Source: Candidatus Limnocylindria bacterium (GTDB taxonomy: Bacteria; Chloroflexota; Limnocylindria; P2-11E). Taken from it: a stretch of DNA of 64,000 bases. The stretch covers positions 9,405 to 73,404 of the forward strand of contig JBBQZK010000001.1 of the NCBI GenBank assembly GCA_038207785.1. Direction: 5' to 3'. Positions within the stretch are counted from its first letter, which is position 1. Each line of letters starts with the position of its first letter. Below, in pieces: positions 7,801 through 62,657 of the stretch. A program made the position numbers and the translations under genes. The notes under the pieces are model-generated. The model was given only the letters and a program-made list of their open reading frames with translations, was not told the DNA's origin and ran no database searches.

Positions 7801-8719
7801 AGAGCACGTCGGCGAGGAGGTTTCCGAGCACCGAGGCGATCGCGCTGAACAACGTGACCGTGATCACGACCGGATAGTCGCGGATGAACACCGAGTCGAC
7901 CGCGAGGCGGCCGACCCCTGGCAGCGAGAAGATGGATTCGACGATCGCCGCGCCGCTGATCAGGAACGGGAGCGTGAAGCCGAGCAGCGTGATCACCGGG
8001 AGGAGGGAGTTGCGCAGCGCGTGACGGACCACCACGGTCCGCCGCTGCAAGCCCTTCGCGTGGGCCGTCCGGACGTAATCCTGGCTGAGCGATTCGAGCA
8101 TCGACGACCGCACGTAGCGCGCGATCGTTCCCATGAGACCGGTGCTCAGGACGATAGTGGGCATCACCAGATACGGCGCCATCTCCATGGGATTCCATCC
8201 GGTCGCCAGTGGCGGTCGGATACCGCTCACCGGCAGCCAATGCAATCGGACCGCGAACAGCATGATGAGCATCAGGCCCAGCCAGAACGAGGGCACCGTG
8301 AAGCCGAACAGCGCGACGAGCGTGCCGAGGTAGTCGAGCGGCCCGTTGGGCCGGAGCGCCTGCAAGATGCCGATGGCGGCGCCCGCGAGCACGCCCACAA
8401 CGATCGCGAGCAGCCCGAGCGTCAGCGTTGTCGGCATGCGCTCGAGAACGAGATTGATCACCGGCTGGCGGGACCGGTACGAGTACAGCTCGCCCCGCGC
8501 GAGCGCGGTCATGGTCTTCACGTACTGCACCGGCAGCGGATCGTCGAGCCCGAGCTCCACCCGGAGCTCGCGGTATCGCTCGGGCGTGGCCTGCTCCGGA
8601 TCCACGAGCAGGCGCGCCGGATCGCCGGGGGCGAAGTGGATGATCGCGAACGACAAGATCGAGATCCCGATGATCAGCGGGATGAGCTGGATGAGACGGC
8701 GTGCGATGTACCGTCTCAT
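7766..8719 (-). CDS. peptide/nickel ABC transporter permease (DppB/OppB-like)
   Basis: It begins MRRYIARRLIQLIPLIIGISILSFAIIHFAPGDP, a typical DppB N-terminus. It has six TM segments and the EAA-like loop. Confidence 0.85.
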   Translation of the reverse strand: MRRYIARRLIQLIPLIIGISILSFAIIHFAPGDPARLLVDPEQATPERYRELRVELGLDDPLPVQYVKTMTALARGELYSYRSRQPVINLVLERMPTTLTLGLLAIVVGVLAGAAIGILQALRPNGPLDYLGTLVALFGFTVPSFWLGLMLIMLFAVRLHWLPVSGIRPPLATGWNPMEMAPYLVMPTIVLSTGLMGTIARYVRSSMLESLSQDYVRTAHAKGLQRRTVVVRHALRNSLLPVITLLGFTLPFLISGAAIVESIFSLPGVGRLAVDSVFIRDYPVVITVTLFSAIASVLGNLLADVLYGAADPRIQYS

Positions 8720-8773
8720 TCCAGCTCCCCCCTTACTGCGCGAACGCGGACGACCGGTGGCGTGGGTAGAACG

Positions 8774-10480
8774 CTAGACGGCCTCCCACTGTGCCGCGGT
8801 GGTCCAAAGCTGCGGGCTGACCTTGATCGGCGGGATCTTGACGGTGTTCCGAACGACGAGCAGGTCCTGGATCCGCCAGAGGTGGATGAATGGCACGTCC
8901 CCCTCGACGATGCTCTGGATCTCTCCGTAGATGCGTTTGATGTCCTTCTCCTCGGTCGCCTTCGTGCCCTGGACGAACAGGTCGTCGACCTTGGGGTTGG
9001 CGTACCCGACGGTGTCCGGGCTGGGAGGCGGGGTGTGGAGGAAGTTCGCCTGGAGGTCGATACGGGGATCGATCGTGAAGTTGCCCCAGCCTTGGAAGAA
9101 CCCTTCGTAGCCCCCGACCACGCCCTTGGAGATGATGGTGCCGAAGTCGAGCTGCTGGATCTGGAACGGGATGCCCATGGTCTTGAAATACGGCTGCAGC
9201 GCGGCCGCCCAAGGGGCAGTGCGCGGTGAGCACATGTAGGTCCACTCGAAGCGCTTGCCATTCTTCACCCGGACCCCGTCGGCGCCCATGGTCCACCCTG
9301 CCGCGTCGAGCAGCTGTTTGGCCTTGGCCGGGTCGTACTCATATTTGGGGGCCTGGGGGTTGTAGATGTAGGACAGCGGCGACACGAGCGAATAATTCGG
9401 TTCGGCCGTCCCGGCGAAGAGGGCGTCGGTGATCGCCTTCCGATCGGGGGTATGGGCCATCGCCTCACGGACATTGCGGTCGGAGAACAGGACATTGGTG
9501 GGGTCGAGCTGCATGTACCAAGCCGTGGTGCCCGGCGACCGCTGCGTCGTGTAGTTCGTCTTGTCCTTGTCGAACTCTCCGAACTGATCGGCGAGGACGG
9601 ACGCGACCTGCACGCTGCCCGCGCGGAGCTCGGCGATGCCCGTCGCCGCATCGGGGATGCCGCGGGAGATGATCGTGTCGAGCCGGGGACGCCCCGCGAA
9701 GTGGTCCTTGAACGCGGTGAGCACGACCCCCTCGCCGTTCTTCCAGTCGCTGACCATGAACGGTCCGGTCAGGATCGGCTTGCGCGCGAATGCCGACTTG
9801 GGATGGTCGGCGACGGGGATCGTCGAAAGGATGTGCTTGGGCACCATGATCGAGCTCGCGACGGTGACGAGGAAGATCGCCGACAGATTCTTCAGCTTGA
9901 AGACCACGGTGTCGTCCCCGCTGGTGGTGATCCCTGCGATCGTCGTCGCCTTCTTGTCCTTGAAGTCCTGCGCTCCGACGATGTTGGCGAGATTGGATGG
10001 CAGGCCGCCGGGCCGATCCGGATGGGACAGCGTCTCGTACGTGTACTTGATGTCCTCGAGCGTGAACGGATTGCCGTCGTGCCACTTGACGCCCTTACGG
10101 ACCTTGAACGTATAGGTCGTTCCGTCCGCGGACACCGTCCACGACTCGGCCAGGTCCGGCGTTGGGCTCATTTCCGGGAGCTGGACCCTGACCAGGCGAT
10201 TCGCCGTGGCGAAGAAGATGTTCCCCGCGTAAGCGTTCCCATTGCCGTAGGGCAAGAGCGTGTTCGGCTCCTGCCCCTGGTTGATGATGAGCGTGCCGCC
10301 GATCTTGGGCGCCTTCGTTCCGCCGGCCCCGGGCGCCGCGCTGCCGCTGGTGGTCGGTCCGGTCGTCGCCGGCTGGCAGGCGGCCAGCGCCGCGAGCGCC
10401 GCTGCGCTCAAGCCGGTCGCCGCGATGAGCTCTCTGCGCGTGAGGACCGTCTGCCCTGAAGGACCCTTCGCTCGCCTCAT
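8774..10480 (-). CDS. ABC transporter substrate-binding protein, family 5 (peptide/nickel), Tat/lipoprotein signal
   Basis: It has an RR motif and an ...AALAALAAC lipobox. It is 568 aa, and its start has a GGAGG RBS. Confidence 0.85.
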   Translation of the reverse strand: MRRAKGPSGQTVLTRRELIAATGLSAAALAALAACQPATTGPTTSGSAAPGAGGTKAPKIGGTLIINQGQEPNTLLPYGNGNAYAGNIFFATANRLVRVQLPEMSPTPDLAESWTVSADGTTYTFKVRKGVKWHDGNPFTLEDIKYTYETLSHPDRPGGLPSNLANIVGAQDFKDKKATTIAGITTSGDDTVVFKLKNLSAIFLVTVASSIMVPKHILSTIPVADHPKSAFARKPILTGPFMVSDWKNGEGVVLTAFKDHFAGRPRLDTIISRGIPDAATGIAELRAGSVQVASVLADQFGEFDKDKTNYTTQRSPGTTAWYMQLDPTNVLFSDRNVREAMAHTPDRKAITDALFAGTAEPNYSLVSPLSYIYNPQAPKYEYDPAKAKQLLDAAGWTMGADGVRVKNGKRFEWTYMCSPRTAPWAAALQPYFKTMGIPFQIQQLDFGTIISKGVVGGYEGFFQGWGNFTIDPRIDLQANFLHTPPPSPDTVGYANPKVDDLFVQGTKATEEKDIKRIYGEIQSIVEGDVPFIHLWRIQDLLVVRNTVKIPPIKVSPQLWTTAAQWEAV

Positions 10481-47656: not shown

Positions 47657-48511
47657 CTAGGGCGTGCACTTCGTGTAGTCACCGGTCGTGTAGCCCGTCG
47701 AGAGCCACTGCTGGCGCTGCGCCGCCGACCCATGCGTCCAGGCCTCGGGAGCGACGCGCCCCGCGGTCTGTTTCTGGATCCGGTCGTCACCGACCGATGC
47801 AGCCGCATCGAGCGCGGTGGCGATATCGGTCTGCGTCGGCGCCTGCAAGAAGCCCGTCTCGGCTGCATGCTTCGCCCAGACGCCCGCGAAGCAGTCGGCC
47901 TGCAGCTCTTGTTTGACAGAAGTGCTCTGCGGCCCGGCGCGCTGATCACTGCTGAGGATGCCCAGCACATCCTGCACGTGATGCCCGTACTCGTGGGCGA
48001 CGACATACGCCTCGGCGAACGGTCCGCCCTTCGCGCCGAATTTCGTTTGCAGCTCGTTGAAGAACGCGAGATCCAGATACACCTTGCCGTCGACGGGGCA
48101 GTAGAACGGTCCCATCGCCGTGGAGGCGGTCCCGCACCCGGCCTGGGTCAGGTCAGTGAACAGCACGGTCGTAGCCGGCGAATACGTCTTCCCGCGCCGG
48201 CTGAGCTCGTCCTTCCAGTACTGCTGGATGCTGTCGACGTAGCCGACGATCCGGCAGTCCTGTCGTTTGTTGGCGTCCGCGCCGCTCTTGCAGTCTGCGA
48301 CCGTGGGCGCATTCGGGTCCGTGACAGTGGTCGTGTCGGTCGGGATCGCGTTGAGGATCCCGGTCGGATCGACACCGAGGAGCAGCGAGACGACGAGGAT
48401 CACGATGCCGATACCGCCGCCTCCGACCATGAGGCCGCCGCCGCCCATGCGGCGGCCACGGACGTCGTCGACCTGCGATGGATCCAGGCGCGCCTCGTCG
48501 TTGAAGCTCAC
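47657..48511 (-). CDS. neutral zinc metallopeptidase (YpfJ/PF04228-like), N-terminal TM anchor
   Basis: It has ...AYVVAHEYGHHVQ... with the HExxH motif. It has a Gly-rich N-terminus followed by a TM segment. It uses a GTG start. Confidence 0.7.
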   Translation of the reverse strand: MSFNDEARLDPSQVDDVRGRRMGGGGLMVGGGGIGIVILVVSLLLGVDPTGILNAIPTDTTTVTDPNAPTVADCKSGADANKRQDCRIVGYVDSIQQYWKDELSRRGKTYSPATTVLFTDLTQAGCGTASTAMGPFYCPVDGKVYLDLAFFNELQTKFGAKGGPFAEAYVVAHEYGHHVQDVLGILSSDQRAGPQSTSVKQELQADCFAGVWAKHAAETGFLQAPTQTDIATALDAAASVGDDRIQKQTAGRVAPEAWTHGSAAQRQQWLSTGYTTGDYTKCTP

Positions 48512-49479: not shown

Positions 49480-51095
49480 CGCTCGTGCGCATCGCCCTTC
49501 GCGCCCAACGGACGGGGACGCTGGCGACGGCCTGGATCGGCACGGTGACGGGCATCGCCAACGGCGTCGGCTACGCCGCGGTCGCGGGGACGACGCACGC
49601 GGAACGCGTTGCCTTCGCCCGGCAGATGGAGCTTCTCGGGAAGCAGCTCTCGTATCTGCTCCCCCAGCCCGTCGCGCTCGACACCATGGGCGGCTACCTC
49701 ACGTGGCGGAGCTTTCCCACGCTCGCGATCGTGTTCGCGATGTGGGGCCTCCTTGCGGCGACGGGTGCAGGTCGCGGGGACGAGGAGCGCGGGCTCACCG
49801 AAGCGTGGCTCGCCACCGGCGTCAGCCGAGCGCGGTGGCTTGCCACCCGCACGGTCGGCTTCATCGCCGTCGCGATGGCGTCGCTCCTCGTCGGATGTGG
49901 GGTCACCACCGTCGCGGTCGCCCTGGTCGGCGATGCTGTGCCGCTCGGCGCGATGGCGTTCGCCGGCCTGCTCGTGCTCGGGGTGGCCGTGTGGGGCTTC
50001 GGACTCGGGCTGCTCGCGGCGCAGCTCGTGACGACGCGGCGAGCGGCGTCGGTCATCGGGGGCGCGGTGATCGTTGCGCTGTACGTCGTCAATTCGGTCC
50101 TCCGGGCGGGCGCGGATCCGGGGCCGCTCAAGTGGCTCTCTCCGTTCTACCTGTTCGACCGCAGCACGCCGCTCGTGCCGGGCGGCACGGTGGACCTCGT
50201 CGCCACGCTCCTCCTCGTCATGATCGGCGTGGTCCTGGCGGGCCTCGCGGCCGTCGCGTTCGCACGGCGTGACCTCGGCGGCGCGCTGTTCGAACGCCGA
50301 CCGGCGACCGCGGCGCCCACGGTGCGGCCGTCCTCCGACCCCCTGCTCCGGCTGCCGGTCCTCGCAGGGGTCGACCAGCAGCGGTGGTGGATCGTCGGCT
50401 GGGCCCTCGGCCTCGCGGTCCTCGGCTACTTCCTCACGTCGCTCGCGAGGACGATCGTGGACTCGCTCGCAGCGATCCCGTCGATGCAGGTCTATCTCAC
50501 GCGCGCGGGGATCAACGCGTACGCGGACATCGTCGGCGTCATCTGGTTCGGGACCGCGCTGCTGCTCATATCCGTCTTCGTGGTCGCGCAGGTGAACGGG
50601 TGGGCCGCGGATGACGCCGAAGGCCGGCTCGAGGCGTCCCTCGCCGCGGGCGCGTCCCGCCACCGGATCGTCCTCGAGCGCCTCGCCGCGTTGCTCGTGG
50701 CCGCCGGAATCGTCGCGGTCGTCAGCAGCGGGGGCGTGTACCTCGCGACGCGGGCGTTCGACATCAGCGTGCCCGGCGATCGGCTGCTGGTCGCCGCGCT
50801 CCTCGTGCTTCCCCTGGTGTTCGCGTTCGGCGGGATCGGACACGCGCTCGTCGGCTGGCGGCCGCGCGTCGCCGTGGTGATCCTGAGCACCGTCGCGATC
50901 GTGTCGTATTTCATTCAGCAGTTCGCGCCGGTCTTCGACGTGCCCGAGTGGGTCAGCAAGCTCTCGTTGTTCGTGCTGTACGGGACGCCGCTGACGAAGG
51001 TCGAATGGTCCGGTGCGCTGACGCTGACGGCCATCGGCATCGCCGGGACGGCTGTAGCGCTGGGCGGGATGCGCCGGCGGGACGTGGGTCGCTAG
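49476..51095 (+). CDS. ABC-2-type transporter permease (duplicated 6-TM domains)
   Basis: It is ATGA-coupled to the ATPase and is a 539-aa polytopic membrane protein. Confidence 0.7.
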   Translation: MTLVRIALRAQRTGTLATAWIGTVTGIANGVGYAAVAGTTHAERVAFARQMELLGKQLSYLLPQPVALDTMGGYLTWRSFPTLAIVFAMWGLLAATGAGRGDEERGLTEAWLATGVSRARWLATRTVGFIAVAMASLLVGCGVTTVAVALVGDAVPLGAMAFAGLLVLGVAVWGFGLGLLAAQLVTTRRAASVIGGAVIVALYVVNSVLRAGADPGPLKWLSPFYLFDRSTPLVPGGTVDLVATLLLVMIGVVLAGLAAVAFARRDLGGALFERRPATAAPTVRPSSDPLLRLPVLAGVDQQRWWIVGWALGLAVLGYFLTSLARTIVDSLAAIPSMQVYLTRAGINAYADIVGVIWFGTALLLISVFVVAQVNGWAADDAEGRLEASLAAGASRHRIVLERLAALLVAAGIVAVVSSGGVYLATRAFDISVPGDRLLVAALLVLPLVFAFGGIGHALVGWRPRVAVVILSTVAIVSYFIQQFAPVFDVPEWVSKLSLFVLYGTPLTKVEWSGALTLTAIGIAGTAVALGGMRRRDVGR

Positions 51096-53158
51096 CGGAC
51101 CGTCACGTACCAGTACACGCCGTAGTCCTCCATCCACTGCGCGCCCTCGACGAGCGGCCGGATGTACAAGCGATACGTCCCGGGCGTCGCGGGCGCCTGG
51201 ATCGTGAACTGGAACCAGGCGACCTGGTTCGGCCCGACGTAGGGAGCGGGCTGGAGGGCCACCCGGTTGTAGCGCGGCCATGCGGTGTTCGGCGAGCCGA
51301 GCTGGCCGTCACCGCCGAGAGGGCTCGGCTGATCCTGGCCGGGCATCGGCGACCACGTGCCGAGGTACGCGACCTCGCCCATGCGTCCGCTGACCCAGCC
51401 CCTCGAGCCCGAATTGTAGTACGCGACGGTCGCCGTCGAGCGGTCGCCGGCGCAGAGCGTCGGATATCCGGACTGGCCGTACCACGACGCATGGAAGCCG
51501 GGCTGCCCCGACGGCAGCGTCGGTGGCGGCGGGATCCCGGGTCCTTCGCTGGAGGTGCACGCAGCCGTCGACGGCGCCGGTGACACGACCGCGAGCTGGC
51601 CGGCTGCGACCGTGACCGTGCCGCTCGATGCGATGGCCCTGGTCGCGTCGATCGTCGCGGTATACGTGCCGGGGGCGAGATCGACGAAGCCGAACCAGCC
51701 CGACCCGTCGGTCGTGCGGCGCGCGATCACCACGTCGTTCGCGCCGTGGAGCGAGACGACCGCCTGCGTGATCGGCGCGCCGCTCGCGTCGACCGCGATC
51801 CCGCGGATGTGGCCCAGCGACGGCTGGTCCTTCCACGGCATGCCCGGCGCCGCGGCGGGTGTCGCGAAGACCGCGGGCGTCACGGGATCATCTGCACTCG
51901 GCTTCGTCAGCGCGGCGATGAGCTGCGCGCGCGCGGACGCGCCGGTGCGGGTCCCGGCATCCGTCGCCGCGTCAGGGGTGCGGTACGAGTAGCCGGCCCA
52001 TCCAGCCGATGGCACGCCGGCCGTGCTCGGCGCGACCGCGGTGCGCACCTGCCGGATGGTCGAGGGGATGTCGTTGAGGTACATCGCGGATCCCACCGCG
52101 CTCGACCGCTGGAACTGCGAATCCTTCGCGAAGTCGGACCACTGCGCGTACCAGGTGCGCTGATTGGCGTCGGTATCGCGCTTGTAGTTCATCGCGATGT
52201 TGAGATCGAGGATGCCCTCGCGCAGCCAGCCGACCCAATCCTGCAGCACTTCGGCATACGTCCGGGTCTTCTCCCAGCCGCCGACGCTCTGCGGCCCCGA
52301 GCCGTACGTGATCGTGTCCGCGCTGATCCGGATCGCAGGCCGGATGGCGTACGTCTCGAGATAGATCTTGCGCACGATGTTCGTGACCTGGTCGCGCCGC
52401 CACTGCGTCCACGCGACGTCCGTGTTCGCCGGCCGGTCCGTGCGTCCGGTCGAGGCCTGGAAGCGCGCGAGGGCCGTCGGGTTGTAGCCCCAAGAGGGCA
52501 CGTTCGTGCCGAAGTTGCCGTCGGGGTACCGGATGCGGTCGAGGTTGATGCCGTCGACGTTGTAGCCGCGCGCGATGCTCGTCGCGATGTTCACGATGTA
52601 CGCGGCGGCATCGGGGTGCCCGGGATCGATGAAGTACTCGTTCGTGAGGTTGGACGCGCCGTCGGAGCGGTAGTCGATCCAGTTGGCGGCGCCGGTCGTC
52701 GCCGGCCCGTGCTGGTTGTACGCGTGATTCGGGTCAGTAGGTGCGGCCGGGCCCTGCCACACGCCGGTGGTGATGATCCACGCGTGGACCTGGATGCCCT
52801 GGGCGTGCGCGGCATCGATGAGCGACTGCAGCGGATCGAACGGCGCGGGCGAGACCCCGGCGTATGCCGCGCGGGGCAGGCTCGAGCGGTTGCAAAGGCA
52901 GTCGCCGCGACGGACGACCTGCGCGACGATCGCGTTCATGTTGGCGCTCTTGACGTCCGTGACGAGCTGATCGATCTGGGCCTGCGTGTACAGGCCGTCC
53001 CCGAACGCGTCGACCCAGAACGCCCGCAGCTGGCCGCCGGCCGCGGCGACGGGCGCGATGTTCGGATCGACCGTCGTGCCCGCGGCGCGGGCTGGAGCCG
53101 CGCAGGCGAGCGCGGCCAGCACGACCGCGAGCGCGATCCCGATCGAGCGGCGGATCAC
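51092..53158 (-). CDS. secreted glycosyl-hydrolase-like family 10 (GHL10/PF02638-like) protein with a CarbR-like domain and a C-terminal ~140-aa beta domain
   Basis: It has a signal peptide VIRRSIGIALAVVLAALACAAPARA and ...FWVDAFGDGLYT... and ...GIQVHAWI.... The GTG at 53158 overlaps the upstream stop (GTGA). Confidence 0.55.
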   Translation of the reverse strand: MIRRSIGIALAVVLAALACAAPARAAGTTVDPNIAPVAAAGGQLRAFWVDAFGDGLYTQAQIDQLVTDVKSANMNAIVAQVVRRGDCLCNRSSLPRAAYAGVSPAPFDPLQSLIDAAHAQGIQVHAWIITTGVWQGPAAPTDPNHAYNQHGPATTGAANWIDYRSDGASNLTNEYFIDPGHPDAAAYIVNIATSIARGYNVDGINLDRIRYPDGNFGTNVPSWGYNPTALARFQASTGRTDRPANTDVAWTQWRRDQVTNIVRKIYLETYAIRPAIRISADTITYGSGPQSVGGWEKTRTYAEVLQDWVGWLREGILDLNIAMNYKRDTDANQRTWYAQWSDFAKDSQFQRSSAVGSAMYLNDIPSTIRQVRTAVAPSTAGVPSAGWAGYSYRTPDAATDAGTRTGASARAQLIAALTKPSADDPVTPAVFATPAAAPGMPWKDQPSLGHIRGIAVDASGAPITQAVVSLHGANDVVIARRTTDGSGWFGFVDLAPGTYTATIDATRAIASSGTVTVAAGQLAVVSPAPSTAACTSSEGPGIPPPPTLPSGQPGFHASWYGQSGYPTLCAGDRSTATVAYYNSGSRGWVSGRMGEVAYLGTWSPMPGQDQPSPLGGDGQLGSPNTAWPRYNRVALQPAPYVGPNQVAWFQFTIQAPATPGTYRLYIRPLVEGAQWMEDYGVYWYVTVR
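51095..51520. repeat. copy A of a ~420-bp direct repeat encoding the shared secreted beta domain
   Basis: It is roughly 80% identical at the nucleotide level and roughly 75% at the protein level with 53870-54295. Confidence 0.6.
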
Positions 53159-54426
53159 CGGACGTACGCCGCCTTGAAGGATTCGAAGCGCGCGTAGAAG
53201 ACGTCGGTGGGCTCGCCGAAGGCCTGCGCGAACGCGGCATGCCACTCGATCCCGCGACCCACGGCCTCGCACCACGTGCGCAGCGGCAGCGGTCCATTTG
53301 CGGCGAGGAGCCGATCGACCGCGAGGTACGAGACGCTGTACGGGTTCGCGCTGTCCGGCCATTGTGTCTCGAGCTGCGCGAGCGCCGGATGGGTCGTCGC
53401 GGTGACGAGCTGCCGCTTCGTGAACGTGTCCATGTTCCCCTGCGGGATGAGCCCGTCAGCGACGAGCGTGCGATACGCGAGCGACTCGGCCATTCCCTCC
53501 GAGAGCCAGCGGGGCCCGAGCATGCATGCGTTGCCGCCGAGCTCGCCCTGCCACACGTGGATGTACTCGTGCGCCGTGAGCTCTCGGCGCTCGGTGTCGG
53601 CGCTCCAGGTGTCCGCCGCCACGGCCCGTGGACTCACCCACTCGCTGTTGCTCGTGACGATGTCGATGCCATCGAGGCGTGCGAGGCAGCAGTACTGGTC
53701 GGCGGTGCTCCCGACCACGATCCGCGTCGTGGCCGTGCGCGAACGATCTCCGCCCACGGCGCGCGCCAGATATGCGGCCGCGCGATCGATGCCCTCGTGG
53801 ACGTCGGCGATGGAACGGGCATCGACGCCGGCCCCGACCGTGAAGTACATACCGCGCGGATCGGGCGGCGTGGCGGCCGGGGCGGAGCCGTCGGGGTTGA
53901 GGACGGTGATCTGCCAGAAGACCCCGTAGTCCTCCATCCATTGCGCGCCTTCGATGAGCGGGCGGATGGCGACGCGGTACGTGCCCGGGGTCGCGGGGGC
54001 CTGAACGGTGAACTGGAACCACGCGACCTGCCCGGGTCCGACGTACGCCGCGGGCTGCACGGCCGGGCGGTTGTACCGGGCCCAGCCCGTCGCCGGTGAT
54101 CCGAATGCACCGTCGCCGCCGACGATGGTCGCCGCGTCCTGCCCCGGGTCGCTGTCCGCGGTGCCGAGGTAGGCGACCTCACCGAGGCGCCCCCTGACCC
54201 AGCCCCGCGAGCCGGAGTTGTAGTAGGCGACCGTGGCCGTCATGCGATCGCCTGGGCAGAGCGACATGTACCCGGACTGGCCGAACCAGGCCGCGTGGAA
54301 CCCGGGCAACCCGGTGGCCCGGCTGGCCGGAGGGGGCACGCCCGGACCGACCGAGGAAGCGCACGTGGCTGCGTGTGCCGGACGGCCAAGCGCCGTCACC
54401 GACGCGACCACGAGCAGAGCCACCAT
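53155..54426 (-). CDS. secreted protein with an N-terminal shared ~140-aa beta domain and a C-terminal HExxH zinc-metallopeptidase-like domain
   Basis: It has a signal peptide MVALLVVASVTALGRPAHA and a GAGGA RBS. It carries ...TAHEYIHVWQGELGG...SEGMAESLAY.... Confidence 0.55.
   Translation of the reverse strand: MVALLVVASVTALGRPAHAATCASSVGPGVPPPASRATGLPGFHAAWFGQSGYMSLCPGDRMTATVAYYNSGSRGWVRGRLGEVAYLGTADSDPGQDAATIVGGDGAFGSPATGWARYNRPAVQPAAYVGPGQVAWFQFTVQAPATPGTYRVAIRPLIEGAQWMEDYGVFWQITVLNPDGSAPAATPPDPRGMYFTVGAGVDARSIADVHEGIDRAAAYLARAVGGDRSRTATTRIVVGSTADQYCCLARLDGIDIVTSNSEWVSPRAVAADTWSADTERRELTAHEYIHVWQGELGGNACMLGPRWLSEGMAESLAYRTLVADGLIPQGNMDTFTKRQLVTATTHPALAQLETQWPDSANPYSVSYLAVDRLLAANGPLPLRTWCEAVGRGIEWHAAFAQAFGEPTDVFYARFESFKAAYVR
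53870..54295. repeat. copy B of the ~420-bp direct repeat
   Basis: It pairs with copy A at 51095-51520. Confidence 0.6.
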
Positions 54427-54475
54427 CCCGATCCTCACTACGACCACAACTCTCACGCGCGCGAAGCGTGACGCG

Positions 54476-56656
54476 CTATCTCGCGTACCGTCCCAACCCT
54501 TCCACCAGCACTTCAGCGACGTGGCGCACGACGAACCCGTCGTGCGCCACGTTGGCGGCCCCGCGCAGATGCAGGAGGCAGCCGGGATTGTCCGTCGCGA
54601 GCACCGTCGCACCGGTCGCGCGAACGTTCTCGAGCTTGCGTTCGGCGATGCGCTGGGCGAGGGCCGGGTGATCGAGCGACGTCGAGCCACCGAACCCGCA
54701 GCACACCCCAGCCTCGGCGAGCTCGCGGACGGGGATGCCGGCGCGCTCGAGCAGCTGCCGACCGACGTCGCCGGAGCCCATGACGTTGGTCGTCTGACAG
54801 AACGCGTGGACAGTCACGGCCTCGGCATCTGCCCGGAGGGGCAGCGCCGGCGGGTCCGCGATCCGAGCGAGGAAGCTCAGCAGGTCGAGGGTCCGCTCGG
54901 AGAGGTGCTGTGCGCGGGCCCGCCACTCGGGCTCACCGGCGAGCAGCTCCACATAGTCGTGAGCGATGGCGATGGCGCAGGACGCACCGGCGCTCACGAT
55001 CCAGTCGGACCGCAGGTCCTCGAGCGCTTCGATCGTCTGCTTCGCCATGCGCCGGGCCGTCTCCCGATCGCCCGCATCGAGCGGCGGCAGGCCGCAGCAA
55101 TGCTGCCCGGCCGGGACGACGACGCGCACACCGCAGGCGCGCAGCAGCTCGATCGCGGCGCGAGCCTGCTCCGGGGCGAACCGGTCGGTGATGCACTGCA
55201 GGAAGTACGCGACCGTCAGACCGCGCGCCTTGCTTTCGCGCCACGGGCCGGTCGCATGCGCCTCGAACGCGCGGCCAAGGAGCGTGTCGCGCCCGGGACG
55301 CGACGCGAGCGCGGGGACGCTCCGCCACCGGAGAGCCGGCGGCAGGGGGATCCGCAGGAATGCGCCTCGCCGGAGCGGGCGCTGGACGACGGACGCGGCG
55401 CGCATCACGGCGTCGAAGACCCGCGGCCGGGACCAGACGGCGAACGCCACGCGCTTCGCGAACGGCAGGCCATTGGCCGCGACGACCGCCGCGCGCACCC
55501 GCAGGATCTGTTGCGGCAGCGGGATGTCGACCGGGCAGATGGTCGCGCACGCGTTGCAGCTCACGCAGAGGCTCTGCGGCCCGGCCGCGTTCTGGAGCCC
55601 GTGATGCGCGGCGGTATTCACGAGGCCGATCGGCCCCGAGTACACGTAGCCGAACACGTGCCCGCCGACGACCTGATATGACGGACAGACGTCGGCGCAC
55701 GCGGCGCAGCGGATGCAGCGCAATGCGTCGCGGAAGCCGGGATCCGCGTGCAGCTGCGTGCGGCCGTTATCCACCAGCACAAGGTGGATCTCGCGGTCGC
55801 CGTCGGTGCCGGTGATGAAGCTCGTGTAGCTCGTGATCTCCTGCGCGGTGGCACTGCGCGCGAGGAGACGGAGCTGTGACGCGGCGTCCGCGAACGTGGG
55901 CACGAGCTTTTCCCAGCCGGCGATGACGATGAGCGTGTTGGGCAGCGTGCTCACGAGGTCGCCGTTCCCTTCGTTCGTCACGAGCATGACGGTGCCGGTG
56001 TCCGCGATCAGCGCGTTCGCTCCGATCATGCCGGCGCCGGCCGCGAGGAACACCCGCCGTAGCTCGGCGCGCGCTAGCGCCACCATCGCGCCGATGTCGT
56101 CGGGATCGACTGCCCGCTGGGCCTCGGCCTCGAGAAGCGCGGCCACCTGCTGGCGACTCTTGTGGATGGCCGGCATGACCATGTGGCTCGGGGTCTCGTG
56201 CGCGAGCTGAACGATCCATTCGCCGAGATCCGTTTCGACGACGCGGATGCCCGCGGCCTCGAGGTGGTGATTCAGGAAGACCTCTTCACCAACCATCGAC
56301 TTGCCCTTCGCGAAGAGCGTCACGCCCCGCTCACGCAGGAGACCCAGGACGATGCTCCGTGCGTCGTCGGCCGTCCGCGCGTCGTGCACAACGCCGCCGC
56401 GCGCCGTGAACGCGCGTTCGAATCGTGCGCGGATCCCGGACGGATCCGCAAGCACGCTGTTCTTGGCTGTCACGAGGCGGGCCTTCTCCTCGGCGAACGA
56501 GCTGCCGGTGGCCCCGACAGCGGACGCTTCGGCTCGCAGTCGTTCGAATGCCGCGTCGCGGGTCAGCCGCCAGGCCCGCTGGAACGCGAGCAAGTTGCGG
56601 CGCAGGCGCGGGTCCGCCAGGGCGCGGCGATACCGCTCGCCGAATGGCGCGATCAC
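54476..56656 (-). CDS. lutB: lactate-utilisation LutB-LutA fusion protein (DUF162/LUD + 2x[4Fe-4S] + two CCG domains)
   Basis: It has ...CIRCAACADVCP... and ...CVSCNACATICP... ferredoxin motifs, then ...CCGLP... and ...CCGFGG... CCG domains. Confidence 0.7.
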   Translation of the reverse strand: MIAPFGERYRRALADPRLRRNLLAFQRAWRLTRDAAFERLRAEASAVGATGSSFAEEKARLVTAKNSVLADPSGIRARFERAFTARGGVVHDARTADDARSIVLGLLRERGVTLFAKGKSMVGEEVFLNHHLEAAGIRVVETDLGEWIVQLAHETPSHMVMPAIHKSRQQVAALLEAEAQRAVDPDDIGAMVALARAELRRVFLAAGAGMIGANALIADTGTVMLVTNEGNGDLVSTLPNTLIVIAGWEKLVPTFADAASQLRLLARSATAQEITSYTSFITGTDGDREIHLVLVDNGRTQLHADPGFRDALRCIRCAACADVCPSYQVVGGHVFGYVYSGPIGLVNTAAHHGLQNAAGPQSLCVSCNACATICPVDIPLPQQILRVRAAVVAANGLPFAKRVAFAVWSRPRVFDAVMRAASVVQRPLRRGAFLRIPLPPALRWRSVPALASRPGRDTLLGRAFEAHATGPWRESKARGLTVAYFLQCITDRFAPEQARAAIELLRACGVRVVVPAGQHCCGLPPLDAGDRETARRMAKQTIEALEDLRSDWIVSAGASCAIAIAHDYVELLAGEPEWRARAQHLSERTLDLLSFLARIADPPALPLRADAEAVTVHAFCQTTNVMGSGDVGRQLLERAGIPVRELAEAGVCCGFGGSTSLDHPALAQRIAERKLENVRATGATVLATDNPGCLLHLRGAANVAHDGFVVRHVAEVLVEGLGRYAR

Positions 56657-61615: not shown

Positions 61616-62128
61616 CTAGCGCTCGGTCTCGCCGGTCGAGCCCTGGCCCGGCTTGCCCTGGCCACCCTGCGTTCCGCTCTGGCCACCCTGGCCACCGTGC
61701 GATCCGCTCTGGCCACCCTGGCCAACCTTCGTTCCGCTCTCGCCGCCCTGGCCACCCTGCTGCGAACCGCCCTGACCGCCCTGGCCACCGTGCGATCCGC
61801 TCTGGCCACCCTGGCCACCGTGCGATCCGCTCTGGCCACCCTGCGATCCGCTCTGGCCACCCTGGCCACCCTGCGATCCGCTCTGGCCACCCTGGCCACC
61901 GTGCGATCCGCTCTGGCCACCCTGCGTTCCGCTCTGGCCACCCTGACCAACCTTCGTTCCGCTCTGGCCGCCCTGGCCACCCTGCTGCGAACCGCCCTGA
62001 CCGCCCTGACGGCCGGCCTGGTCCTGCGGCTGGCCCTGCTTGCCCTGCTCGCCGTGCTTACCCTGCTGACCTTGGCCACCCTGGGATCCACCCTGGCTTC
62101 CTTGTCCCTGCTTGTCCTTGTCCTGCAT
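61616..62128 (-). CDS. Gly/Gln/Ser-rich low-complexity (GGQ-repeat) intrinsically disordered protein
   Basis: It reads MQDKDKQGQGSQGGSQGGQGQQGKHGEQGKQ...(QGGQSGSHGG)n...GETER. It has a strong AAGGAGG RBS. The ORF-track start is over-extended. Confidence 0.6.
   Translation of the reverse strand: MQDKDKQGQGSQGGSQGGQGQQGKHGEQGKQGQPQDQAGRQGGQGGSQQGGQGGQSGTKVGQGGQSGTQGGQSGSHGGQGGQSGSQGGQGGQSGSQGGQSGSHGGQGGQSGSHGGQGGQGGSQQGGQGGESGTKVGQGGQSGSHGGQGGQSGTQGGQGKPGQGSTGETER
61640..62100. repeat. coding minisatellite with 24/30-bp periodicity (unit about CCGCTCTGGCCACCCTGGCCACCGTGCGAT) and a ~210-bp higher-order duplication
   Basis: Directly visible tandem repeats. The block ccaaccttcgttccgctct.gccgccctggccaccctgctgcgaaccgccctgaccgccctg occurs twice. 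Confidence 0.7.
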
Positions 62129-62216
62129 TGCGTGGCCTCCTTCGTATTTACCGGCGAGCCGGCTCCTTCTATCGCCGCAGAGGCCGTGCCAGAGACCGTA
62201 CGCGGCCGCCTGGCCG

Positions 62217-62657
62217 TCACCCGTTACGAACGGCCGAGCCGCGCCCACGCGGTCGGTCGTCCAGCCGCGCGACAAGCGCGCGGACCCGGCGCTCGATGCC
62301 GTCACGGACAAGCCGGAAGGCCGCAAGCCGCTCCTCGTCCGGACCGCGCGCGAGCGCGGGGTCGGCGAGCTTCCACCGCAGCTGTACCGCGGCGCCGGGC
62401 GGGATCGGACAGTTCGCATCGCACACCGTGACGCAGATGTCGAAGGGTCCGGCGACGTCGTCCACGCACGTGCTGCGCTGGGCCCTGATATCGATCCCCA
62501 CCTCGGCCATCGCGCGGATCGCGAGCGGATGGAGCTCGCTCGCGACCGTGCCCGCGCTCTCGGCGACGAACCGATCGCCGCCGAGCGCGCGGAGGAATGC
62601 TTCGGCCATCTGCGAGCGGGCGGAGTTGTGCCCGCAGAGGAACAGCACGCGCGTCAC
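62217..62657 (-). CDS. arsC: LMW-PTP-family arsenate reductase (thioredoxin-coupled ArsC type) / low-molecular-weight phosphatase
   Basis: It has the P-loop LFLCGHNSARSQMAEA (CX5R) plus downstream ...VTVCDANCP... cysteines in the ArsC positions. Confidence 0.65.
   Translation of the reverse strand: MTRVLFLCGHNSARSQMAEAFLRALGGDRFVAESAGTVASELHPLAIRAMAEVGIDIRAQRSTCVDDVAGPFDICVTVCDANCPIPPGAAVQLRWKLADPALARGPDEERLAAFRLVRDGIERRVRALVARLDDRPRGRGSAVRNG

Follow-up and report, generated by a model that had tools for sequence, protein, structure and literature searches.

The FW domain (Pfam PF16158) has been solved for human NBR1 (4OLE), human ILRUN (6VHI) and Chaetomium Nbr1 (7VQO). In Chaetomium Nbr1 (CtNbr1) the N-terminal tail of Ams1 sits in a pocket between beta1 and beta6, and the human NBR1 domain binds MAP1B and TAX1BP1 (PMC9233695, PMC9582228). 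Occurrence of FW domains in bacteria, Chloroflexi included, was reported in 2012, in diverse architectures and with no function assigned (PMC3357945), and later work repeats this (PMC9233695, PMC9582228); a literature search for PF16158 in bacteria gave nothing beyond these three papers. The subject here is a pair of adjacent genes (51092-54426) in a stretch of 64,000 nucleotides from contig JBBQZK010000001.1, positions 9,405 to 73,404 of the forward strand, this whole stretch being referred to below as the window. The gene products, a GHL10 glycoside-hydrolase-like protein and an HExxH metallopeptidase-like protein, share a module that, on profile and model evidence, is a divergent subfamily of the FW/NBR1-like superfamily. 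The source organism, assigned to Candidatus Limnocylindria, is a soil Chloroflexota bacterium.

At the DNA level the sharing is visible as a direct repeat. This reflects nothing more than the common case of two proteins using one domain, here as old paralogous modules; it is no recent duplication, nor is it a mobile element or an artefact. That two secreted proteins have an Ig-like domain in common is in itself unsurprising to specialists; the new part is the divergent subfamily of a known kind of domain.

The shared module

Copy A of the module (51095-51565; minus strand, as are all features of the pair) forms the C-terminal 157 amino acids of the GHL10 protein. Copy B (53899-54369) comprises the 157 amino acids that directly follow the leader of the HExxH protein, and begins with a Cys-containing N-terminal extension (ATCASSVGPGVPPP...). 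With exactly 2804 nucleotides from one to the other, the two stay in register and align without a single gap over 157 amino acids or 471 bp, with identity at 113/157 amino acids (72%) and 337/471 nucleotides (71.5%). As chance nucleotide identity at the same composition is about 0.3, the match is far beyond chance, and BLASTP between the complete proteins gives 68% over 173 amino acids (E=1e-77). A shared domain in two adjacent secreted proteins, the core of the original prediction from the sequence, is thereby borne out, with the module somewhat longer than the approximately 140 amino acids (420 bp) and the amino acid identity somewhat lower than the approximately 75% then given. The window contains these two copies only.

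An FW/NBR1-like fold with lineage-specific additions

Scans of the module with Pfam and NCBIfam profiles yielded no significant match. Copy B scores 13.8 bits (E=0.09) with PF16158, N_BRCA1_IG, for which the gathering threshold is 28 bits, and copy A gives no match to it up to E=10. Profile searches of Protein Data Bank sequences with a close (A1) and a broad (A4) alignment were likewise without significant result, 4OLE appearing at E=1. An AlphaFold2 model made from 52 homologues (pLDDT 84.7, pTM 0.78) is an all-beta sandwich, for which the top Foldseek match is 4OLE (E=3.3e-5), with 6VHI and the CtNbr1 structure 7VQO also listed, so that the predicted Ig-like beta-sandwich is closest to the solved FW domains. 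Of the checks suggested at the outset, the hidden Markov model search of the module itself thus stayed below threshold, and it was structure prediction that placed the fold.

Sequence kinship is reached transitively. When the module profile was searched against 1.84 billion cluster representatives (50% identity clusters), 2100 were found with E<=1e-3, of which 256 also pass E<=1e-30. PF16158 is rarely scored by the 77 closest representatives, and is scored by 39/70 of the more distant ones scanned (best E=2.5e-31), proteins that the module profile itself matches at E values from 1e-42 to 1e-71; among isolated domain segments 25/41 match PF16158. The original prediction was to fall if the module proved to be a well-known domain with an established role. 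It does belong to a known superfamily, with no established role in bacteria.

Across 167 modules, 61/156 positions are at least 93% conserved, including Cys2 and Cys37 and the Trp residues at positions 27, 56, 95, 116, 143 and 151. In distant relatives W35, W74 and W122 of the core alignment are conserved. Two features are specific to the subfamily. One is an N-terminal extension of about 20 residues with the pattern C-x-S-S-x-G-P-G-I-P-P-P; in distant relatives the alignment begins only at about profile position 20. The other is a long conserved loop, PGQD..LGGDG..GSP.TGWPRYNR. A candidate explanation for the first Cys, that it belongs to a lipoprotein lipobox, was rejected: [LVI][ASTVI][GAS]C is not matched, the preceding residue in homologues being T, A, E, P, I, V or S, and in the GHL10 protein this Cys is internal. 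It co-varies with the second conserved Cys at position 37.

Age and origin of the two copies

Identity of copy A to copy B by codon position is 76%, 85% and 53%, with a chance expectation for third positions, from base composition, of 42%. By the Nei-Gojobori method the synonymous divergence (dS) is about 1.07, which is saturated, the non-synonymous divergence (dN) is 0.22 and dN/dS is 0.20. A scan for orthologous loci, with one genome per species and neighbourhoods covering ±10 kb around matches, found 10 other Limnocylindria/Chloroflexota assemblies with the same order of genes for a Lut-like iron-sulfur oxidoreductase, the HExxH protein and the GHL10 protein, usually with a convergent ABC transporter and a YpfJ-like peptidase 3′ of this trio. 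The orthologous modules in those assemblies are 83-94% identical to the matching window copy, and identity between the paralogous modules is 71-77% in every one of the 10. Modules from other metagenomes reach 90% identity to copy A, and its neighbour, copy B, has 72%. In a neighbour-joining tree of the 167 modules, made without support values, copies A and B fall in separate orthologue clades with many modules of other architectures between them, copy B grouping with the N-terminal modules of the HExxH proteins of loci L001-L009.

Given the saturated dS, the dN/dS of 0.20, the orthologues of each copy in 10 assemblies and the separate clades, A and B are old paralogues under purifying selection. 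Because constraint at the protein level conserves the module, the direct DNA repeat is a by-product only. Recent copying or shuffling of a segment of about 420 bp between the neighbouring genes, as the original prediction had it, does have in its favour that the two copies lie side by side, point the same way and can be aligned without gaps. With third-position identity near chance level, synonymous sites saturated, and nearer relatives of each copy in other genomes than next door, it is highly improbable. For an assembly artefact, a collapsed or chimeric repeat, which had been named as grounds for refutation, the only argument is that there is a repeat at all. Between the copies 28% of nucleotides differ, each copy is read in frame inside a long open reading frame with the dN/dS just mentioned, and the two-copy arrangement recurs in 10 independent assemblies, leaving an artefact a practically negligible chance. 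Gene conversion or concerted evolution was also considered, and rejected as modules in the neighbour-joining tree group by orthology, not by genome.

Distribution and partner proteins

Judged from the sequences of its carriers, the module is Limnocylindria-specific, strongly conserved and borne by dozens of secreted proteins of the lineage. In the close, Limnocylindria-type subfamily it stands directly after the leader in 56/78 cases, at the C-terminus in 15 and internally in 7. Where an N-terminal module belongs to a protein starting with Met, there is a hydrophobic leader in 44/45. Stand-alone forms, consisting of leader and module (about 190 amino acids), exist. Among partner domains related to the cell wall are RlpA-type DPBB, VanY, sortase, polysaccharide deacetylase, C39-like peptidase, GHL10, CHAP, M23, SpoIID and Amidase_2; others include S8 proteases, GH5, GDSL lipases, CAP and GSDH, and many partners are without any Pfam match.

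Divergent homologues of the HExxH protein in other Limnocylindria lineages have a module 68-74% identical to that of the window protein and a catalytic domain 57-59% identical. In loci L013-L017 (gene at 8001-9281 in each, catalytic domain 57-60% identical) they are flanked by genes for glyoxalase and peroxiredoxin, and the vicinity contains no GHL10 gene. Since these homologues keep the module without a GHL10 neighbour, it is not peculiar to the HExxH/GHL10 pair, and the notion that it is special to a glycanase and peptidase partnership has to be given up. An obligate functional pair was rejected on the loss of adjacency in homologues at 57-60% identity. That the N-terminal module serves as a propeptide or an inhibitor was similarly rejected, the same module being C-terminal on GHL10 and also occurring alone.

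Distant relatives of the module also occur in large proteins with as many as five FW-like domains in tandem (e.g. P0211 and P0261); one tandem array, P0244, is MBW3537883.1 from Candidatus Parcubacteria, a genome of the candidate phyla radiation. Clusters at 50% identity number 2100, and the FW superfamily of bacteria thus seems to be far larger than published work suggests.

The gene pair and its two enzymes

The HExxH gene (53155-54426) runs from ATG at 54426 to TGA at 53155, a call that its open reading frame and ribosome-binding site support (GAGGA, 7 nucleotides 5′ of the start codon), and encodes 423 amino acids arranged as leader, FW-like module, Pro-rich linker and gluzincin catalytic domain. 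The GHL10 gene (51092-53158) runs from GTG at 53158 to TAG at 51092 and encodes 688 amino acids arranged as leader, GHL10 domain, CarboxypepD_reg-like Ig domain and C-terminal FW-like module. As read from the sequence, the GHL10 start codon lies over the HExxH stop codon in a GTGA tetranucleotide (53155-53158). This overlap, noticed from the start, is real; the order of the genes had been taken the wrong way round, the HExxH gene being the upstream (5′) one in the direction of minus-strand transcription and the GHL10 gene the downstream one. The junction is also of the GTGA type in orthologous loci L001, L006 and L010, and elsewhere there are gaps of about 50-200 nucleotides. The two genes are a translationally coupled pair kept in the closest relatives. 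A scan of 50800-54800 for promoters and terminators found no sites and no terminator-like hairpin, and therefore the limits of the operon rest only on the GTGA overlap and a 50-nucleotide gap to the Lut-like gene upstream. Transfer RNA and Rfam scans of the window gave nothing relevant.

The HExxH leader, MVALLVVASVTALGRPAHA (54370-54426), is a probable Sec signal of 19 amino acids, hydrophobic and ending AHA|A in translation, with the boundary to the mature protein at MVALLVVASVTALGRPAHA|ATC; the equivalent leaders of orthologues follow M(R)x..LLV..L.RPAxA|ATC. The GHL10 leader, VIRRSIGIALAVVLAALACAAPARA (53084-53158), is also hydrophobic with an AxA end, its boundary being VIRRSIGIALAVVLAALACAAPARA|AG. 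Because these hydrophobic AxA leaders are kept among orthologues, both proteins are likely to be secreted.

The GHL10 catalytic domain (52163-53029) matches PF02638 at E=2.5e-33 (116 bits, cut-off 27.9), in keeping with the original reading of a GHL10-like hydrolase. E. coli DigH scores E=6e-136 with the same profile, and the window domain is 25% identical to DigH over 280 amino acids (E=4e-15); membership of GHL10 is thus attested both by the profile threshold and by homology to DigH. The CarboxypepD_reg-like (prealbumin-like) beta-sandwich spacer (51587-51808) matches PF13620 at E=2.7e-10 (40.9 bits, cut-off 32.3). DigH, also termed YddW, acts at the septum, where it breaks down denuded peptidoglycan glycans (PMC12288456), and as the window domain shares PF02638 with it, a wall-glycan substrate for the GHL10 protein is plausible.

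In the HExxH protein, 53158-53886 covers the linker and a catalytic domain of gluzincin type, like clan MA(E), with HEYIH at 53557-53571 and, within WLSEGMAE, the Glu that is the third zinc ligand at 53497-53499. Among 56 homologues, none of H106, E107, H110 and E130 varies, and the conserved HExxH with a downstream Glu is accompanied by a thermolysin-like catalytic fold. Homologues of the protein number 118, all from Limnocylindria/Chloroflexota and of about 420-426 amino acids, with no Pfam hit on record. The catalytic domain itself reached no Pfam or NCBIfam family, PF01433 giving 16.9-18.6 bits with a cut-off of 27.7. PF13485 is reached (E=8e-7) by 1/77 module-bearing representatives (alignment A2), possibly an HExxH-family relative. 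An exact-sequence look-up of the HExxH protein of the window in a contig index gave no match.

What the module may do

The interpretation that we consider probable, with appreciable doubt, is that the locus carries two old paralogous copies of a divergent secreted FW module that acts as a common extracytoplasmic targeting or retention module. Such a role is proposed because the module is terminal, is more conserved than its catalytic partners, is common to unrelated secreted enzymes and also occurs alone. It would bind one conserved ligand of the cell envelope (candidates are peptidoglycan, attached polymers and surface proteins), and binding would hold different exo-enzymes at the cell surface or deliver them to the wall. 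The HExxH and GHL10 enzymes would be co-expressed and sent to the same site, where GHL10 might plausibly cut glycan parts of the wall and the HExxH enzyme peptide parts. Ligand binding, identity of the ligand and joint action of the enzymes are what we infer, and the cell-wall or polysaccharide-binding role suggested originally may be counted as possible from the sequence.

Several points weigh against this interpretation. The papers on bacterial FW domains report neither binding nor localisation (PMC3357945, PMC9233695), and the characterised eukaryotic ones bind proteins or peptides, not glycans (PMC9582228, PMC9233695). Neither window copy reaches the PF16158 threshold. The Cys2-Cys37 disulfide that probably ties the N-terminal extension to the core is read from conservation only, and the separate-clade placement of the copies comes from a tree without support values. 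The partner domains are mixed, many not being cell-wall enzymes, and therefore a peptidoglycan-specific role is not required. Adjacency of the GHL10 and HExxH genes is restricted to a close clade, for which reason there is little support for the two enzymes being functionally coupled.

Alternatives differ in what, if anything, the module binds. It could be a protein-interaction domain that docks enzymes on a scaffold or surface layer in dockerin-like manner, or that reads peptide termini, e.g. those of peptidoglycan stem peptides. Precedent comes from the binding of the Ams1 N-terminal tail by the CtNbr1 domain and of MAP1B and TAX1BP1 by the human one (PMC9233695, PMC9582228), and both the stand-alone secreted modules and the scaffold-like tandem copies, up to five, in distant relatives would suit it. 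No candidate receptor or scaffold was found in the window or the related loci, and we regard docking as rather unlikely, with the comment that it overlaps the targeting and retention interpretation and differs from it only in the chemistry of the ligand. Unlikely too is a carbohydrate-binding module for external polysaccharides, whether exopolysaccharide, plant or microbial, which would raise the local substrate concentration for hydrolases and would not address the cell's own envelope. The Ig-like beta-sandwich with several conserved aromatics in surface loops (W27, W95 and Y33), the glycosidase partners (GH5, GHL10, Glyco_hydro_cc and DUF4832) and a weak similarity to NPCBM_assoc, Ig-like linker domains of sialidases and GH123 enzymes are all compatible with it. 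However, many partners (peptidases, lipases, sortase, CAP and dehydrogenases) have no polysaccharide substrate, no carbohydrate-binding module family is matched, and the solved relatives NBR1, ILRUN and CtNbr1 bind proteins (PMC9582228, PMC9233695). Finally, Ig-like spacers are common in secreted bacterial enzymes, the GHL10 protein already having one in CarboxypepD_reg, and the module might be just an inert structural or stabilising domain or spacer without a ligand. This is improbable: spacers evolve fast, yet the 61/156 positions of high conservation extend across unrelated partners and into long surface loops, the module has changed less in evolution than the catalytic domain attached to it, and its place is at chain termini rather than between domains, if it is not alone.

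An extension of the targeting and retention interpretation can be put forward only tentatively. Limnocylindria may have a surface-display system of their own with the divergent FW module as address tag, dozens of secreted enzymes (peptidoglycan hydrolases, proteases, glycosidases and lipases) being held on the cell envelope via one conserved receptor. If so, this would be the first function for any bacterial FW domain, and the cargo-binding FW domain of NBR1 would perhaps be descended from a bacterial extracytoplasmic targeting domain. Whatever the outcome there, the locus and its relatives point to a large, very strongly conserved and apparently exclusively secreted FW subfamily missed by current Pfam models. 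Its small size, probable disulfide and stand-alone forms make the module a practical handle on what bacterial FW domains bind. Limnocylindria are abundant in soil and freshwater, and recognising the module would improve annotation of their poorly annotated secretome.

Neighbouring genes and other observations

Downstream of the pair, the convergent stop codons of an ABC-2-type permease gene (plus strand, TAG at 51093-51095) and the GHL10 gene (minus strand, TAG at 51094-51092) share CTAG at 51092-51095, with a 2-nucleotide overlap. On the other side, 50 nucleotides upstream of the HExxH start, 54476-56656 (minus strand) encodes 726 amino acids, read as a fusion of a LutB-like part (LUD, 4Fe-4S) and a LutA-like part (CCG). 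This Lut-like gene adjoins the HExxH gene in 9/10 related loci, with no evident functional link. At 47657-48511 (minus strand) is a gene for 284 amino acids that include a Gly-rich membrane segment near the N-terminus and the HExxH motif AHEYGHHVQ, labelled YpfJ-like from sequence reading. It adjoins the ABC transporter or GHL10 in L002, L004, L008 and L010, and gives the neighbourhood another metallopeptidase-like gene, unrelated to the first. Farther away, within an open reading frame at 61616-62419 (minus strand), a tandem repeat at 61656-61985 (period 30/81, about 11 copies) encodes, in a small protein, a low-complexity tail rich in Gly, Gln and Ser (GGQGGQSGSQGG / GGQSGSHGG...) that is probably intrinsically disordered.

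One of the related loci, L002 (DATJHW010000036.1, 1-7546), carries the deposited name Candidatus Saccharimonadales bacterium. Five of its genes (Lut-like, HExxH, GHL10, ABC transporter and YpfJ-like) are in synteny with the Limnocylindria loci, with protein identity to them of 65-93%, the ABC permease being lowest at 65%. From its sequence, it is probably a mis-binned Chloroflexota contig.

Comparison with known systems

Of the two enzymes, the GHL10 protein has its PF02638 catalytic domain in common with E. coli DigH (YddW). The relationship is distant: the window protein adds CarboxypepD_reg and FW-like domains, and its host belongs to the monoderm-type Chloroflexota. Compared with the gluzincins of clan MA(E) (M1, M30, M9, M61, M4 and Peptidase_MA_2), the HExxH enzyme has a stand-alone catalytic domain of 243 amino acids, without the flanking domains of M1, and its family is restricted to Limnocylindria/Chloroflexota.

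For the module, SLH, LysM, SPOR and dockerin offer a works-like analogy only, in that each is a small conserved terminal module on many unrelated exo-enzymes, peptidoglycan hydrolases included. There is no relation in sequence or fold, and for the window module ligand binding is something that we infer; neither these families nor carbohydrate-binding module families appeared in Pfam scans of both proteins and the isolated module up to E=10.

The closest comparison is with FW domains themselves. Relative to the solved ones, the window module adds a Cys-containing N-terminal extension of about 20 amino acids and a conserved insert of about 40 amino acids, and it is extracytoplasmic, as far as the leaders indicate, whereas the characterised FW domains are cytosolic and bind cargo or partners in autophagy receptors. 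The bacterial FW proteins of Marchbank et al. 2012 resemble the present case in that Chloroflexi are listed, architectures are diverse and the domain is often terminal (PMC3357945). The examples stressed there are cytoplasmic XRE-FW regulators with C-terminal placement (PMC3357945). The Limnocylindria module, by contrast, appears to be secreted and mostly N-terminal, after a leader, and to constitute a large and highly conserved lineage-specific family of paralogues.

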